From: a virus
Taxonomy: Duplodnaviria > Heunggongvirae > Uroviricota > Caudoviricetes
Reading direction: 5' to 3' (one strand)
Length of the DNA stretch: 5,687 bases
IMG/VR virus record: IMGVR_UViG_2713896768_000015
A program made the position numbers and the translations under genes. The notes beneath the pieces are model-generated. The model ran no database searches. It had not been told where the DNA came from and worked only from the letters and a program-made list of their open reading frames with translations. The first letter of the stretch is position 1. The number at the start of each line of letters is the position of its first letter. Shown piece after piece: positions 1 through 5,687 of the stretch.

Positions 1-1
1 G

Positions 2-946
2 GCTTACAAAAACTTCTTCCGGAAGCGGGCTGCTTTTCCCCGATTCAAAAAGCGGGGACAGAATGATGCATTCCGCTACCCGCAGGGCGTTAAGCTCGAT
101 CAGGAAAACAGCCGTATTTTTCTGCCGAAACTGGGCTGGATGCGCTACCGGAATAGCCGTCAGGTCACGGGTGTTGTGAAAAATGTCACTGTCAGCCAGT
201 CCTGCGGTAAGTGGTACATCAGTATTCAGACAGAAAGTGAAGTATCCACTCCGGTTCACCCTTCAGCATCAATGGTCGGGCTGGATGCTGGCGTGGCTAA
301 ACTCGCCACGCTGTCAGATGGCACAGTCTTTGAGCCTGTAAACAGTTTTCAGAAAAACCAGAAGACGCTGGCGAGACTTCAGCGACAGTTAAGCCGCAAG
401 GTCAAATTCAGCAACAACTGGCAGAAGCAGAAACGCAAAATACAGCGACTGCATTCCCGTATCGCAAATATCCGCAGGGACTACCTTCATAAAGTCACAA
501 CGACCGTCAGCAAAAACCACGCAATGATAGTCATTGAGGATTTGAAGGTCAGCAACATGTCAAAGTCAGCAGCGGGTACGGTCAGCCAGCCGGGGCGCAA
601 TGTCCGGGCAAAATCAGGTTTAAACCGTTCGATACTGGATCAGGGCTGGTATGAAATGCGCCGCCAGCTTGAGTACAAGCAGCTCTGGCGTGGCGGTCAG
701 GTGCTTGCTGTTCCGCCAGCGTACACAAGCCAGCGTTGCGCGTGCTGTGGTCATACAGCGAAAGAAAACCGCCTGTCACAAAGTAAATTCGTGTGTCGGG
801 CTTGTGGATATACAGCGAACGCCGATGTAAACGGCGCTCGTAACATTTTAGCGGCGGGGCACGCCGTGCTTGCCTGTGGAGGGATGGTGCAGTCAGACCG
901 CCCGTTGAAGCAGGAACCCTCCGAAATGATTCAGGCGACAGCCTGA
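2..946 (+). CDS. tnpB: IS200/IS605-family TnpB (OrfB) transposon-associated RNA-guided nuclease, 5'-truncated by the window edge (C-terminal 314 aa visible)
   Basis: The open frame runs from position 2 with no stop until TGA at 944-946 (the ORF track starts at the first Met, 140). RuvC-like motifs are present: GLDAG (Asp at 284-286), IVIEDL (Glu at 536-538) and [11 protein letters not shown] (Asp at 824-826). A C-x2-C...C-x2-C zinc finger (QRCACCGH...FVCRACG) precedes the last RuvC motif. This is the typical TnpB C-terminal architecture. Confidence 0.9.
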
Positions 947-1030
947 ACATAGCAGGAATCCACACCCCGAAGAGCGTGGAGGATGTCACGCTGCCTCTTT
1001 AATGTTGGCGGCTATCCATGCCGCCGTGTG
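800..1030 (+). ncRNA. Candidate omega-RNA (right-end RNA) locus for TnpB; boundaries approximate
   Basis: Established knowledge: TnpB guide RNAs are transcribed from the 3' end of tnpB through the IS right end, with the guide taken from the flanking DNA. Nothing in the sequence lets me place the scaffold precisely; only the hairpins at 973-992 and 1007-1025 are seen. Confidence 0.25.
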
Positions 1031-1351
1031 CTGTTTAACCTGGTCCAGGTCGATGTATGTGCCAACATATTGACTCAAGTCCTGTAACGTACCGATAAAT
1101 GCATCAGTGCTCTGATCGACGAATTTATCAGCCAGGAAATCAGCAACCAGTTTTGGCACACCATCATGTACCGAAGGTTGTTTTTCCTCGCCACTACTGC
1201 CGCCGGACGCGCCGTACCCCATCTGTTGCATGATCTGGTCAATTTCATCGCTGATATCCAGCAACTCCATGCCACTCGCGGTAGCCGCTTTGGATATCAG
1301 AGCATCCAACTTATCGCTGAGATCCATTAACTCAATAGCTGATAGTGTCAT
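986..1351 (-). CDS. ddrA: Acidic 121-aa protein, last gene of the operon; positional equivalent of P1 DdrA (assignment by position only)
   Basis: The ATG at 1351-1349 overlaps the upstream gene's TGA (ATGA at 1348-1351), indicating translational coupling. The protein is Asp/Glu-rich with a Gly/Ser linker (GYGASGGSSGEE). The name rests on operon position and my recollection of P1, not on alignment. Confidence 0.55.
   Translation of the reverse strand: MTLSAIELMDLSDKLDALISKAATASGMELLDISDEIDQIMQQMGYGASGGSSGEEKQPSVHDGVPKLVADFLADKFVDQSTDAFIGTLQDLSQYVGTYIDLDQVKQHTAAWIAANIKEAA
1007..1025. other. Perfect 6-bp GC stem (GGCGGC / GCCGCC) with 7-nt loop
   Basis: Read directly: ggcggc (1007-1012), tatccat, gccgcc (1020-1025). 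It lies inside the last codons of the convergent 121-aa gene. Possible IS subterminal hairpin, omega-RNA element or transcript-end structure. No downstream U-run, so not a classic intrinsic terminator. Confidence 0.3.
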
Positions 1352-3267
1352 GCCGCTACCCCCGCTTTCTGGATTGCTACCAGCAGATCAGCCAGGTGGC
1401 GAGCAGCGCCATTAACCAGCTCTTCGTTTTCCTCAAAACGCCCGGCAGCCTGAAGGGCTGCAATCGCTTCCCGGACATTGCCCCGGGCGTTACGGATCTC
1501 CGCCATGTCAGTGCTTTGCATATCCATCACGTTATTGAGATATTCAATGGCTTTATTAGCCTCTGCATCTGCTTCGCTAACCGTTTCATCAGGCTGTGCC
1601 GGGGCCGGTTCTGGCTGAGTAATCTCACCGACTTCGGCCTGCAATGCATTGATCATGCTCTGCACCATTTTCTCGGTGCCAGCGCCCCCCGGAAACGCAA
1701 TATTGGGGAAAGTTTTTTGAAACTGAGTCTTCAGCATTACGCGGAACTCGTCTGGTGAGCTGGTGGCCAGCTCCAGAGCTTTTTGTGCATATTTGCCAAA
1801 CGGACCATTAGTAAGTGTCTTCGCCAGGAAGTCGAAAGAATCCTCGCGAGGCAATAACTTCAGGTCGTACTCACTCATTTGCTGATCAGAAAGCGGGGTA
1901 TCGTAAGTAGCAATGCCGTAGCGTGCATATTCATAATACGGGTCACCGTCATCAGGGCGCGGCAGAATTGCTTTGTTACCTTCAGGTATCGCGCCAGGGG
2001 CCGCCGGACGCATTTGCAGGGCATATCGATATGCACCTACAGAGACTTCTGGTTCAGGCGAAGAGCTACCGGTATCCTCCGCTGGTTCAGGTTCGACGTT
2101 TTCCGGTTTATGTTCTTCTGGTTGGACCAGATATTCCGATACATTACCCGCTTTATAGGCTTTAAACAGCTTGCCGAGCGCATCCGCCATGTCCACACCC
2201 TGTATGGATTTAGCCTTGATCATGTACACGCTGCCATCCGAATCGGTTAACTGGATATACCCTTCGCCGTCCCCAATGAATTGCTTCATTGATGCACCAT
2301 TACTGAGCGTCGCTTCCCCGTCCATATGCATACGATTTTTGATACTGGCAAGGCGATCCGTCAGCGCGCGAGAGTGTCCACCAGTCATCCCCGCTGGAGC
2401 AATGGTATCGCGCCCACCAGTGCGATTGAGCTGATCAATCTCCGTCTGCAAACGCTCATTCTCTTCATAAAGAGAATCCGCTTCCGATGCAACAGCGTTA
2501 ATTTTCTGCTCCAGATCTGCCTTCTGCCCTTCTACCGCTGCCACCTGATCCGCGAGGTCGCTCATGGCATCCTCTTTCTGGTCACTGTCAGCCTGTAGTT
2601 GGGTTATTTCATCAACAAGGGCTTTTTTCTTCTTCTGCGCACGCTGGAATTTTGCCGAGTTTTTCTCTGCAAGGTTGGCAAGTTTCATGGTGACCTGCGC
2701 CAGCGTCATATCACGTCCACTCATCGGAGCAACGGTGTGAGTAACGTCTTTTTTATTCAGTAAGAACTGGAAAGCAACCAGCGTATCGCTATTGGTGATC
2801 CGGTTTTCCGCTGTCGGGCTATGAAACAGAATGCTGATAGTCTGACCATCACTGAGCGGAATAATGGCTGGCAGGACTGGCAGCCCGTTAACGTTACGTG
2901 CCCGGCCAATTTCAGCGCCGCCGATCGCGCGCGCGCCGCTCTGGGCCACATCCCCCGTTTTATCACTCCCCGCAGATATTCCGGTACCATTCAGCTTCTG
3001 GTTCAATGCCCGGACAAATGCCTGCATGGTCCGGTGTAACTGCAAACGAGTAGAACTAATCGCCTCCAGTAAATCCGTAGCACACCAGTGGATCGGCGTG
3101 TCATAGAAGAACGTAGCCTCGATTTCTTCCAGGGTGTTGGATTCCGTCATCAGATAGCGGTCCTCACCGGCCATTAATGCGCGATATTCATCATCAGTCA
3201 CCGGCGGGGGAAGCACGTCAAGCCCCGGCTTAATCGTCACCCCTTTATTGATATTGAACTGTTCCAT
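1348..3267 (-). CDS. darA: DarA-like capsid antirestriction (defence against restriction) protein, 639 aa
   Basis: Start ATG at 3267 with AGGAA 6 nt upstream, 1 nt after the upstream gene's stop. The N-terminal ~210 aa share a domain with the preceding 200-aa protein (LxDGQxIxI ... KNSAKFQ). A coiled-coil-like charged segment (~aa 205-285) and two acidic Pro/Glu-rich linkers follow. Size and context match P1 DarA as I recall it. Confidence 0.8.
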   Translation of the reverse strand: MEQFNINKGVTIKPGLDVLPPPVTDDEYRALMAGEDRYLMTESNTLEEIEATFFYDTPIHWCATDLLEAISSTRLQLHRTMQAFVRALNQKLNGTGISAGSDKTGDVAQSGARAIGGAEIGRARNVNGLPVLPAIIPLSDGQTISILFHSPTAENRITNSDTLVAFQFLLNKKDVTHTVAPMSGRDMTLAQVTMKLANLAEKNSAKFQRAQKKKKALVDEITQLQADSDQKEDAMSDLADQVAAVEGQKADLEQKINAVASEADSLYEENERLQTEIDQLNRTGGRDTIAPAGMTGGHSRALTDRLASIKNRMHMDGEATLSNGASMKQFIGDGEGYIQLTDSDGSVYMIKAKSIQGVDMADALGKLFKAYKAGNVSEYLVQPEEHKPENVEPEPAEDTGSSSPEPEVSVGAYRYALQMRPAAPGAIPEGNKAILPRPDDGDPYYEYARYGIATYDTPLSDQQMSEYDLKLLPREDSFDFLAKTLTNGPFGKYAQKALELATSSPDEFRVMLKTQFQKTFPNIAFPGGAGTEKMVQSMINALQAEVGEITQPEPAPAQPDETVSEADAEANKAIEYLNNVMDMQSTDMAEIRNARGNVREAIAALQAAGRFEENEELVNGAARHLADLLVAIQKAGVAA

Positions 3268-3268
3268 G

Positions 3269-3871
3269 TTAATTTCCTGCTTTCAGTTGCTTAAGACGGC
3301 GTTTGAGTTCGCCATTTCGGGCCTTTTCGTTATTGAGTCGGCCTGTCTCCTTATCCAGCTTCGCCCGCAAATCAGTGATCTGCTGTTGATTGAAAGACAC
3401 CGAGTTCTGAGCTGATTTATAAGCGGCAACCACCTGAGCATTCCGCTGTTTTGCCTCTTGCAGGCGCTGAAAGTTGGATTTTACTGCCGGTTTCTTGTCT
3501 ACCGGATTGGCAACACGTTTCGCTTTGGCGATCAGTGATTTCTGGAATTTTGCGGAGTTTTTGCGGGCCGCTTGCCCCATGACGGTACCAAGCGTCTTGA
3601 TATCCGGCGACTGAGCGTTAGGAATAGCTTTTCCATTCAGCCTCACAGACGATATATCGCCAGTATCGTTTACCTGTATGGCAAGAATTTGTCCGTCGTT
3701 AAGAACCAGCTTTGCGGTTTTAACTTTAACGCCATCTTTCGTTGTTGCGCGGTTGCTGGAGTCAACCTCAATTACCGTAACACCGGTTTTATTGATCGTC
3801 GCGATAAGGGATTTCAGCCCCCTTTCATTAACCTGGTCAAAATCGACCGTTGCATACTTATTTTTCGTCAT
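3269..3871 (-). CDS. hdf: Hdf-like protein (homologue of the DarA N-terminal fragment), ~200 aa
   Basis: It shares the motif block with the N-terminal region of the 639-aa protein, including a 21-nt stretch identical at 20 positions (3542-3562 versus 2644-2664, encoding KNSAKFQ). The likely start is the second ATG (3871-3869), which has AGGA 8 nt upstream. The ORF-track start at 3880 has no usable spacing. The C-terminal half is basic and coiled-coil-like. Confidence 0.75.
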   Translation of the reverse strand: MTKNKYATVDFDQVNERGLKSLIATINKTGVTVIEVDSSNRATTKDGVKVKTAKLVLNDGQILAIQVNDTGDISSVRLNGKAIPNAQSPDIKTLGTVMGQAARKNSAKFQKSLIAKAKRVANPVDKKPAVKSNFQRLQEAKQRNAQVVAAYKSAQNSVSFNQQQITDLRAKLDKETGRLNNEKARNGELKRRLKQLKAGN

Positions 3872-4301
3872 CTGACACATCCTGTGCGAGATTTATTACG
3901 TAACTTCTGCGGATTTGCTGAGTAACAGGGAAAATCCGATACAACGGGTTAATGAACGAGTCGCCATGCGTAACCATGACGTTGAAATGCCACAGTCGTT
4001 CTCCTTTACCCATATATTCAGTGGGTATGTACAACCATTCACTGTTTTCGCCCTGTTCAGCCGACGTCAGACAACGTTGTTCGCCTTCAATCACTGTCGT
4101 TGGCTTCTGAACATCGCGGATCCAATATCTGACCGTTGCGCCGCGCAAAAACGGGAATTTAGACCGGTATTTGAACGGCACCCGGATGAAGCCCTGTTTA
4201 ATTTCCACATCACCAAGTTCTAAATGCGTGATGTCCTTGCGTTTTAGCAAATAGCGATCGGCTAAGGCTAACGCAAGAGCGCATACACCCCAGCCAATCA
4301 T
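3858..4301 (-). CDS. lydB: LydB-like protein (holin antagonist in P1), 147 aa
   Basis: The ATG at 4301-4299 overlaps the upstream holin gene's TGA (ATGA at 4298-4301), with GGGAGG 6 nt upstream. Hydrophobic N-terminus (MIGWGVCALALALA). Size and position match P1 lydB as I recall it. Confidence 0.7.
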   Translation of the reverse strand: MIGWGVCALALALADRYLLKRKDITHLELGDVEIKQGFIRVPFKYRSKFPFLRGATVRYWIRDVQKPTTVIEGEQRCLTSAEQGENSEWLYIPTEYMGKGERLWHFNVMVTHGDSFINPLYRIFPVTQQIRRSYVINLAQDVSDDEK

Positions 4302-4627
4302 TTCCCACCTCCCTTTTTCACCAAACTTGTAAGAACATTCAGAATGCTATCGATATTCACTCGTTTCATCCCTGAAATCACCTCATGACCGTTATTGCTG
4401 GCTATCGTTACCATTAAGTACGTAATTGATAACTCCCAGCCTTCGTGTTGCCCCAATAGGTACGCCACCGCGCCAGCTGTCACTGCAACAAAGATCTCCG
4501 TAACCAATCCCAACAAATTGCCAGACTGGCGACCGTCTCGGACATCCATCAGGAACGTGCCTATCCCACCAATTACTGAAAGCAGGAGCGCAATAGCAAC
4601 TGGAGCTAATTCCTGTGTGTCAAGCAC
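4298..4627 (-). CDS. lydA: LydA-like holin, 109 aa, three predicted transmembrane segments and a charged C-terminus
   Basis: GTG start at 4627-4625 with AGGAGG 6 nt upstream. Hydrophobic stretches LAPVAIALLLSVIGGIGTFL, LLGLVTEIFVAVTAGAVAYLL and LSITYLMVTIA, ending in KKGGGK. First gene of the coupled operon. Confidence 0.75.
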   Translation of the reverse strand: MLDTQELAPVAIALLLSVIGGIGTFLMDVRDGRQSGNLLGLVTEIFVAVTAGAVAYLLGQHEGWELSITYLMVTIASNNGHEVISGMKRVNIDSILNVLTSLVKKGGGK

Positions 4628-4633
4628 AAGTTC

Positions 4634-4653
4634 CCTCCTACGTTGTCAGGAGG
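4634..4653 (-). promoter_or_regulatory. Hairpin pairing the lydA Shine-Dalgarno (AGGAGG) with an upstream CCUCCU anti-SD
   Basis: On the minus-strand transcript: CCUCCU (4653-4648), 8-nt loop, AGGAGG (4639-4634), then a 6-nt spacer and GUG. The six base pairs are four G-C and two A-U. Confidence 0.35.
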
Positions 4654-4694
4654 TAATGGTATGCAAAGTAACTTCTCAACCGGTCATTTGTTGC

Positions 4695-4934
4695 TTAAGA
4701 GGCATTTCTATTGAGGTACGAATCGATAAGCCTTTGTAACCTTTCAAAAATGAGCCTGTTATTGATGCTGCAAATAAGAGTCACGCAATTCTGAAGACTT
4801 TCATCCATACCCTTATATTCCGCGAAATACATGCCTATAAAGCCTGCAAGTACGGCAGCAATACACTCGGCCATCAATTGCCTGCATGACGCTTCGTAAC
4901 GTTTTTCACGAACCCCATTCAGAAACGAATGCAC
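4695..4934 (-). CDS. Hypothetical small protein (79 aa; possibly 59 aa from an internal Met at 4874) with one hydrophobic helix
   Basis: ORF in an AT-rich spacer between the invertase and the holin gene. The GTG start has GGAGG only 1 nt upstream, which is poor spacing. The internal ATG at 4874-4872 has a weak AGG 6 nt upstream. Coding status is uncertain. Confidence 0.3.
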   Translation of the reverse strand: MHSFLNGVREKRYEASCRQLMAECIAAVLAGFIGMYFAEYKGMDESLQNCVTLICSINNRLIFERLQRLIDSYLNRNAS

Positions 4935-4958
4935 GCCTCCAAGGATGGTTATAAAAAA

Positions 4959-4984
4959 TATGGTTAAATCAAGGTTTAGGATTG
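4959..4984. other. Candidate invertase crossover site (cix/gix/hix-like 12-2-12 element) overlapping the invertase stop codon
   Basis: TATGGTTAAATC-AA-GGTTTAGGATTG. The right half matches the Din-family half-site pattern (reverse complement CAATCCTAAACC; compare hix TTATCAAAAACC and gix TTATCCAAAACC). The left half is weaker (TAAATC inner core). Confidence 0.4.
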
Positions 4985-5536
4985 AAATGATGACGCCGGA
5001 AACTTCTTATAAAGCGTGGAAACAGCCACATCATAGATGATTGCAACCTGCTTACGGGGGATGCCCTTCTCGAGCAATCGCCGCATTTGCTGCCATGTTT
5101 CTTCTTGGTATTTAGGCCGACGCCCACCTATACGACCTTCTGCGCGAGCTGCATCAAGTCCAGCGCGTGTACGTTCAACGATAAGCTCACGTTCCATTTC
5201 TGCCAGCGCCCCCATTACGTGAAAGAAAAAACGCCCCATTGGTGTACTGGTGTCGATGGAGTCAGTGAGACTCCGGAAGTTAATGCCTCTGTCACGCAGC
5301 TCTTCCACCAGCACAACTAAGTGACGCATGCTGCGCCCAAGACGATCTAACTTCCATACGACTAGGGTGTCACCTCTGGAAAGCATACGGAGAACCTTTT
5401 TTAACCCAGGGCGTTCAGCCTTTTTGCCGCTCGCCTTGTCCTCAAAAATTAGCTCACATCCTGCGCTTTCAAGGGCATTTCGTTGTAAAGCAGTGTTTTG
5501 TTCATTTGTTGATACGCGTACATAGCCAATTAGCAT
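4976..5536 (-). CDS. cin: Serine DNA invertase of the Gin/Cin/Hin/Pin (Din) family, 186 aa
   Basis: N-terminal MLIGYVRVSTNEQ with the catalytic Ser at residue 9, a resolvase/invertase catalytic domain (VWKLDRLGRS, MGRFFFHVMGALAEMERELI) and a C-terminal helix-turn-helix (GIPRKQVAIIYDVAVSTLYKKF). GGTGA lies 8 nt upstream of the ATG. The symbol cin is chosen from the P1-like context; family membership is near certain, the specific orthologue is not. Confidence 0.92.
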   Translation of the reverse strand: MLIGYVRVSTNEQNTALQRNALESAGCELIFEDKASGKKAERPGLKKVLRMLSRGDTLVVWKLDRLGRSMRHLVVLVEELRDRGINFRSLTDSIDTSTPMGRFFFHVMGALAEMERELIVERTRAGLDAARAEGRIGGRRPKYQEETWQQMRRLLEKGIPRKQVAIIYDVAVSTLYKKFPASSFQS

Positions 5537-5655
5537 ATTTTCTGCTCACCATAGTTATTCATAGCAAGCTGCGGATTTTAATTAACAGAAACCAGTGTGT
5601 GTGGAAATCACAAAGTGCATACCGTGCCCCAATGATGTTTTATTGAAAAGCGGGG

Positions 5656-5681
5656 TTACTTTAATGTTTGGTTTAAGAGAA
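5656..5681. other. Candidate crossover site upstream of the invertase gene (cixL-like), at the window edge
   Basis: TTACTTTAATGT-TT-GGTTTAAGAGAA. The distal half (reverse complement TTCTCTTAAACC) is a strong Din-family half-site; the invertase-proximal half is degenerate. It sits about 120-145 bp upstream of the invertase ATG, where gix/cix sites overlap invertase promoters. Confidence 0.4.
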
Positions 5682-5687
5682 CTTGGC

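Follow-up and report, generated by a model that had tools for sequence, protein, structure and literature searches.

The dar late operon of a P1-like phage-plasmid with a tnpB element at its ddrA end and an inverted cin segment upstream

We examined a stretch of 5,687 nucleotides (nt) from a virus of the Caudoviricetes (IMG/VR virus record IMGVR_UViG_2713896768_000015), referred to below as the window. Five co-oriented genes lie within positions 986-4627, all on the minus strand and in the order lydA-lydB-hdf-darA-ddrA, and we assign this region with very high confidence to the dar (darA) late operon of a P1-like phage-plasmid of the genus Punavirus, in the SJ46/RCS47-like lineage. The operon is composed of the following features, with protein lengths given in amino acids (aa).

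4656..4674, minus strand: LPdar late promoter, with a -22 box AAGTTACTT at 4666-4674 and a -10 box TACCAT at 4656-4661
4298..4627, minus strand: lydA, a holin of 109 aa whose gene starts with GTG behind a strong Shine-Dalgarno (SD) sequence, AGGAGGG
3858..4301, minus strand: lydB, a 147-aa antiholin and antagonist of LydA, starting within the ATGA shared with the lydA stop
3269..3871 (200 aa, from ATG-3871) or 3269..3880 (203 aa, from ATG-3880), minus strand: hdf, the capsid-internal partner of DarA
1348..3267, minus strand: darA, a 639-aa internal head protein that defends against restriction
986..1351, minus strand: ddrA, 121 aa, starting within the ATGA shared with the darA stop and taking its TGA from the right end of an insertion sequence (IS)

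The operon unit exceeds these five genes, as it begins at LPdar and in P1 extends into ddrB. Consecutive genes overlap or abut at each of the four boundaries. The lydA/lydB junction is an ATGA overlap at 4298-4301 (-4 nt); the lydB stop lies at 3858-3860 and overlaps hdf by 14 nt if translation begins at ATG-3871 or by 23 nt if it begins at ATG-3880; a single spacer base at 3268 (+1) separates the hdf stop from the darA ATG; and darA and ddrA share a second ATGA at 1348-1351 (-4 nt). The original prediction, made from the sequence by itself, had described this co-oriented, tightly joined arrangement, and all of its coordinates proved to be correct.

Comparison of the five products with their P1 counterparts supports the identification. 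LydA is identical to P1 LydA (AF234172) at 109/109 positions (100%), LydB to P1 LydB at 143/147 (97%), the 203-aa form of Hdf to P1 Hdf at 198/203 (98%), DarA to P1 DarA at 630/639 (99%) and DdrA to P1 DdrA at 116/121 (96%). The suggestion that a holin/antiholin-like pair precedes three proteins which in P1 are head-internal antirestriction components is thus borne out by families and identities alike, with the five proteins matching those of P1 at 96-100%; the similarity of the 639-aa and 200-aa proteins to DarA and Hdf, on which the suggestion had been made to depend, is close to complete. At the DNA level, megablast against phage records aligned P1 at 98% identity over 990-4948, Salmonella phage SJ46 at 97.8% over 1-4971 and Escherichia phage RCS47 at 98.3% over 1-4678, the latter two alignments including the IS; a further 80 IMG/VR loci encode DarA at 97-99% identity. 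We encountered no evidence that contradicts the identification of the dar operon.

The family assignments are in agreement with these identities. LydA passes the Pfam family Phage_holin_3_3 (PF16083) at 30.1 bits, with a gathering cutoff of 28.4, and matches a PHROG holin profile at 4e-49. A Kyte-Doolittle hydropathy scan, which is not a dedicated topology predictor, finds two hydrophobic segments in LydA at approximately residues 8-27 and 37-58, so that the 109-aa protein does not lack the transmembrane helices expected of it; its C-terminus is basic and charged (...LVKKGGGK). LydB matches the Pfam family LydB (PF16084) at 4.5e-102 and 338 bits over its full length (1-147 of 147), has no segment at transmembrane level (maximum 19-residue hydropathy 1.49, threshold 1.6), and has no solved relative in the PDB. 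Two hydrophobic segments in LydA and a LydB below the threshold agree with the published two-helix holin and soluble antiholin. Hdf carries a Pfam DarA_N domain (3.5e-21), and in its 203-aa form residues 4-203 align with the PHROG Hdf-like antirestriction profile, which has 200 positions. DarA carries both DarA_N (3.8e-42) and DarA_C (1.1e-16). Both proteins match the P1 cryo-electron microscopy (cryo-EM) entries 9ukm and 9vz0, DarA corresponding to chain I of 9ukm (E=0) and Hdf to chain H. DdrA matches the PHROG 'DdrA-like' antirestriction profile at 3.8e-57.

A more distant occurrence of the DarA_N domain was seen in Xanthomonas phage Rb1 (locus L008, 3179-6844), where a 1221-aa 'internal head protein' is 32% identical to DarA residues 128-265. 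None of its neighbours is annotated as a lysis gene, yet most of them are unchecked 'hypothetical protein' entries. The Rb1 protein may be a larger polyvalent head protein into which a DarA_N domain is built, away from the context of a P1-like operon.

The biology of these proteins has been established in P1. LydA, a holin with two helices, permeabilises the inner membrane; its soluble antagonist LydB delays it and averts premature lysis (PMC9025707). In a CRISPR interference map of the P1 genome, which gives the order ddrB, ddrA, darA, hdf, lydB, lydA, lydC, cin, lydB was the only knock-down to lower plating (PMC10695390). Hdf, DarA, DdrA and DdrB are listed as head proteins in the virion proteome (PMC9024508), and in cryo-EM 55 DarA-Hdf pairs are seen lining the inside of the capsid at the penton-hexon junctions, with Hdf and DarA loading early and DdrA, DdrB, DarB and Ulx following (PMC12810830). 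In the P1 literature, Hdf and DarA set the head size and are required for loading of the other Dar proteins, the Dar proteins are ejected along with the DNA and shield it from type I restriction, and DdrA is a virion protein listed as an antagonist of EcoA. From identities of 96-99% to P1, we infer that Hdf, DarA and DdrA of this element would likewise be packaged in the head and would protect against type I restriction.

The same late regulation is suggested by the promoter. Late in P1 infection, the Lpa activator turns on the phage-specific LPdar just upstream of lydA; the dar operon content, its late promoter and the holin/antiholin roles are all described in this source (PMC9025707), which credits the operon to Guidolin 1989, Schmidt 1996 and Iida 1998. 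The P1 records AF234172 and AJ000741 place LPdar (a palindromic -22 box and a -10 box) between lydC and lydA. Positions 4656-4674 of the window are base-for-base those of P1 LPdar, and the whole of 4600-4720 is identical to P1 in the alignment. Within the operon, a consensus scan of the coding strand detected no sigma-70-like promoter; for terminators, one weak site at chance level was found on that strand, and the total for the window was below chance expectation. An identical promoter and the lack of a convincing internal promoter or terminator would fit an Lpa-dependent single mRNA, and the five cistrons would be read from one LPdar transcript in this element as well.

How the five cistrons are translated from such a transcript is less certain. 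For each start we paired the 15 nt upstream with the 3' end of 16S rRNA and ranked the result against all 11,308 window positions. The lydA, lydB and ddrA starts score -10.7, -12.6 and -9.9 kcal/mol, respectively, within the top 0.5% of positions. The darA start (-4.7 kcal/mol) and the ATG-3871 start of hdf (-5.0 kcal/mol) are marginal, in the top 11-13%, and ATG-3880 of hdf has no SD (+1.6). The view that each gene has its own SD therefore stands for lydA, lydB and ddrA, where the sites are strong, and falls short for hdf and darA. For hdf, the SD evidence favours ATG-3871 (200 aa) over ATG-3880, and the PHROG Hdf-like profile starts at the Met of ATG-3871. AJ000741 annotates both starts; the 203-aa form is that deposited for P1 and used in PDB 9ukm, and 200 aa are annotated in SJ46, JK004 and RefSeq plasmids.

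Tight junctions at four of four boundaries are typical of phage late operons and are unremarkable on their own. At all four boundaries the upstream stop overlaps or abuts the next start, a geometry that suggests translational coupling, in which ribosomes ending at lydA, lydB, hdf and darA would re-initiate at the next start. Given the weak SDs of hdf and darA, re-initiation would matter most for these two genes. We found no experimental test of coupling in the dar operon in the literature searched. The indirect evidence on coupling is mixed, and three observations weigh against the picture of a P1-type operon with coupled cistrons or are neutral to it. The genes lydA, lydB and ddrA possess strong SDs in their own right; the darA start lies in a highly accessible stretch of the predicted mRNA (97th-99th percentile in the window and in the Cronobacter phage JK004), making independent initiation at darA plausible; and the two ends of the operon are unlike those of P1 in this copy, with the IS after ddrA and a rearrangement upstream. 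The first two of these, like the 1-4 nt overlaps often seen in late operons of phages, would also be expected if the cistrons shared one transcript and initiated independently, with the overlaps reflecting compaction of the phage genome. Against such independent initiation are the marginal SDs of hdf and darA, the persistence of the four tight junctions across three lineages whose proteins have diverged to as little as 32-43% identity, and the pairing of Hdf with DarA in the capsid, which fits coupled synthesis without proving it. We regard a shared transcript without coupling as a serious alternative, of somewhat less than even probability. A stricter form of coupling, enforced by mRNA structure, found no support: local mRNA accessibility in the window, JK004 and phage D6 revealed no consistent sequestration of the starts, and darA is highly accessible. 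In view of the weak SDs of hdf and darA and of the conserved tight junctions, coupling could explain, in a way open to test, how Hdf is paired with DarA in the capsid.

The flanks of the operon contain the following features.

1..985, plus strand: right part of a tnpB-only IS200/IS605-family element ('insQ'), tnpB frame 2-946; it interrupts the operon and is not a member of it
4695..4973, minus strand: body of lydC, an accessory holin paralog, without its ATG and promoter, upstream of LPdar and outside the dar operon
4976..5536, minus strand: cin-type serine invertase, 186 aa (Pfam Resolvase and HTH_7)
4962..4987, no strand: hybrid recombination site, the lydC-side quasi-cix half joined to the cin-side cixL half, GGTTAAATC-AA-GGTTTAGGATTGAA
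5661..5687, no strand: the reciprocal hybrid, linking the ribosome-binding region of lydC and ATGTTTG with the tail-fibre cixL half, GTTTAAGAGAACTTGGC, at the window end

The element at the ddrA end is 1335 bp in full, and its only gene is tnpB (Pfam OrfB_IS605 and Cas12f1-like_TNB), on the strand opposite ddrA. The insertion coincides with the stop codon of ddrA, follows TTAT as read on the tnpB strand, and splits ddrA from ddrB. In P1 the sequence GAGGCAGC runs directly into ATAAGGCGTAACACGGATG (ddrB), and the insertion point falls between the two; the empty P1 site is at 2497-2504 of locus L001. SJ46 carries the same 1335-bp insert, which P1 lacks. As a result of the insertion the last ddrA codon changes silently from GCA to GCG and the stop TGA is supplied by the right end of the IS, leaving the C-terminal protein sequence of DdrA unchanged and the ddrB start intact. 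The direct succession of ddrA and ddrB seen in P1 and JK004, with a 12-nt spacer, is accordingly lost from the window, where the IS intervenes. In the colinear sibling contig L010 (GCA_001039215.2), ddrB (995 aa) is found beyond the IS and has kept its original spacer. Of 86 related loci, 17 carry the IS at this site, 65 are without it and 4 lack the flank. The IS-split arrangement is a variant of the dar operon and not a different operon; in the SJ46/RCS47-like lineage the tnpB element now parts ddrB from the rest, and ddrB expression would now need read-through over the inserted IS.

Comparison of L010 with the window revealed 34 substitutions, all of them in tnpB (window 21-751) and causing 13 amino-acid changes, the two sequences being otherwise identical. 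The confinement of the differences to tnpB suggests either exchange or conversion among IS copies, or the mixing of repeated copies during assembly. Beside the right end of the IS, the flanking DNA is antisense to the 3' end of ddrA, and under the known mechanism of TnpB this flank would serve as guide. The TnpB target would then be TTAT followed by GCTGCCTCTTTAATG, the IS-free P1 junction, and the IS-free ddrA/ddrB junction, TTAT-GCTGCCTCTTTAATGT, is a candidate TnpB target. A permissive Rfam scan of the whole window returned nothing besides a sub-threshold match to RAGATH-18 at 873-916 (+), within the 3' end of the tnpB gene (28.1 bits, gathering threshold 44.9, E=0.037). RNAs derived from RAGATH-18 are the guide-RNA scaffolds of a TnpB family (PMC11061315), and this match may be part of the element's guide RNA.

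At the other end of the operon, window 4966-5676 (7581-8310 in L010), comprising cin and its promoter region, is inverted with respect to every related record examined bar one. The standard arrangement is seen in P1, in D6 and in several plasmids and contigs of E. coli whose identity to the window over the operon is 98-99.7%. Records of this kind have cin divergent from the dar operon, with which it shares its direction here. The junctions, at approximately 4962-4987 and 5661-5687, are reciprocal joins of cixL (GCCAAGTTCTCTTAAACC-AA-GGTTTAGGATTGAA) and the lydC start region (TTTAATGTTTGATTTAACCATA), and comparison with the standard arrangement places the crossover within a shared TTG/CAA. The lydC frame consequently reads LDLTIFFITILGGVHSF... 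where the standard allele reads MFDLTIFFITILGGVHSF...; the longest canonical lydC open reading frame (ORF) left here encodes 79 aa from GTG-4934, with a poor SD. In L010, the lydC ATG-TTT-G is fused in frame to the tail-fibre segment Sv', giving a 522-aa ORF. Quasi-cix sites are secondary sites of Cin action. From its junction sequences, the inversion looks like the work of Cin on a quasi-cix site overlapping the lydC start codon.

The flipped state is rare. L010 alone shares it among the 37 loci with this cin allele, a 32-mer spanning the junction is absent from IMG/VR and from the GTDB representative genomes, and a junction 20-mer has a single match, in an unexamined contig of a Daejeonella metagenome-assembled genome, which we take as chance. 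Among the matches listed, no complete E. coli genome and no PLSDB plasmid spans the flipped junction. Among elements with 99.3-99.7% identity over window 1-4972, both orientations of the cin segment are found. One interpretation is that cin lies in a second Cin-invertible segment, running from cixL to the quasi-cix at the lydC start, whose flipping acts as a switch in this sub-lineage. If so, the standard orientation would allow the early accessory holin LydC to be made, and the orientation seen here would leave lydC without promoter and ATG, these being fused in frame to Sv'. We consider such a switch improbable; a rare aberrant Cin event at a secondary site, without a regulatory role, is more likely.

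The IS at the ddrA stop codon and the loss of the lydC start codon could be read as signs of a decaying, non-functional prophage-plasmid remnant, its operon broken by the insertion and by the inversion of the cin segment. Several observations make this very unlikely. The five ORFs are all intact, at 96-100% identity to P1, and their promoter does not differ from that of P1; the IS spares both the C-terminus of DdrA and the start of ddrB; the IS-bearing arrangement is found in SJ46 and RCS47, both deposited as phage genomes, in 72 PLSDB plasmid records covering at least 80% of the window and in the 17 of 86 scored loci given above; and the sibling contig L010 is a full-length element of approximately 98 kb.

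Consideration of related phages determines how much of this arrangement is new. The original prediction presented the lysis and antirestriction genes as fused into one operon. In most phages the holin and antiholin genes adjoin the endolysin gene (PMC9025707). Beyond that first impression nothing favours a novel cassette fusion peculiar to this element; the notion is refuted, and we give it practically no credence: P1, P7, SJ46, RCS47, JK004 and D6 have the arrangement in common, and it is described in the literature (PMC9025707). The dar operon is an ordinary feature of these phages, known from papers of 1989-2026. Nothing new comes from the operon itself, a textbook P1 operon re-identified; the organisation of the P1 genes did prove recognisable from raw sequence.

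P1 itself (AJ000741; AF234172/NC_005856 nt 27542-31230) has the same five genes, order, junction geometry and LPdar -22/-10 boxes. It differs from the window at the two ends: P1 ddrB starts 12 nt past ddrA, where the window copy has the tnpB element between them, and P1 has an intact lydC divergent from cin, where the window has the inverted cin segment and a lydC without a start. SJ46 and RCS47 carry the same tnpB ('insQ') element at the same site beside ddrA, and neither matches the lydC-cin junction of the window; SJ46 differs further in an invertase region consisting of a pin gene and an invertase fragment, and in a longer, 114-aa lydC annotation. In Cronobacter phage JK004, at 59-78% protein identity, these genes recur with junctions equal to those of the window (-4, -14, +1 and -4 nt), and ddrB follows at +12. 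Phage D6, at 32-43% protein identity, keeps the order with spacings of -1, -11, -8 and -1 nt, and +94 to ddrB, with cin adjacent and divergent. Because both JK004 and D6 retain lydA-lydB-hdf-darA-ddrA-ddrB with tight junctions, the linkage of lysis and anti-restriction genes, like the junctions themselves, is ancestral to the P1-like phages.

A further known system for comparison is the canonical lambdoid lysis cassette, in which holin/antiholin, endolysin and spanins form one operon and a late promoter likewise drives a holin together with an antagonist that times lysis. The dar operon departs from this plan in three respects. Its endolysin, Lyz, is unlinked, lying approximately 7 kb beyond ddrA in L010; LydB is a soluble protein in its own right and not a holin with an N-terminal extension; and the genes downstream of the lysis pair encode capsid-internal proteins.

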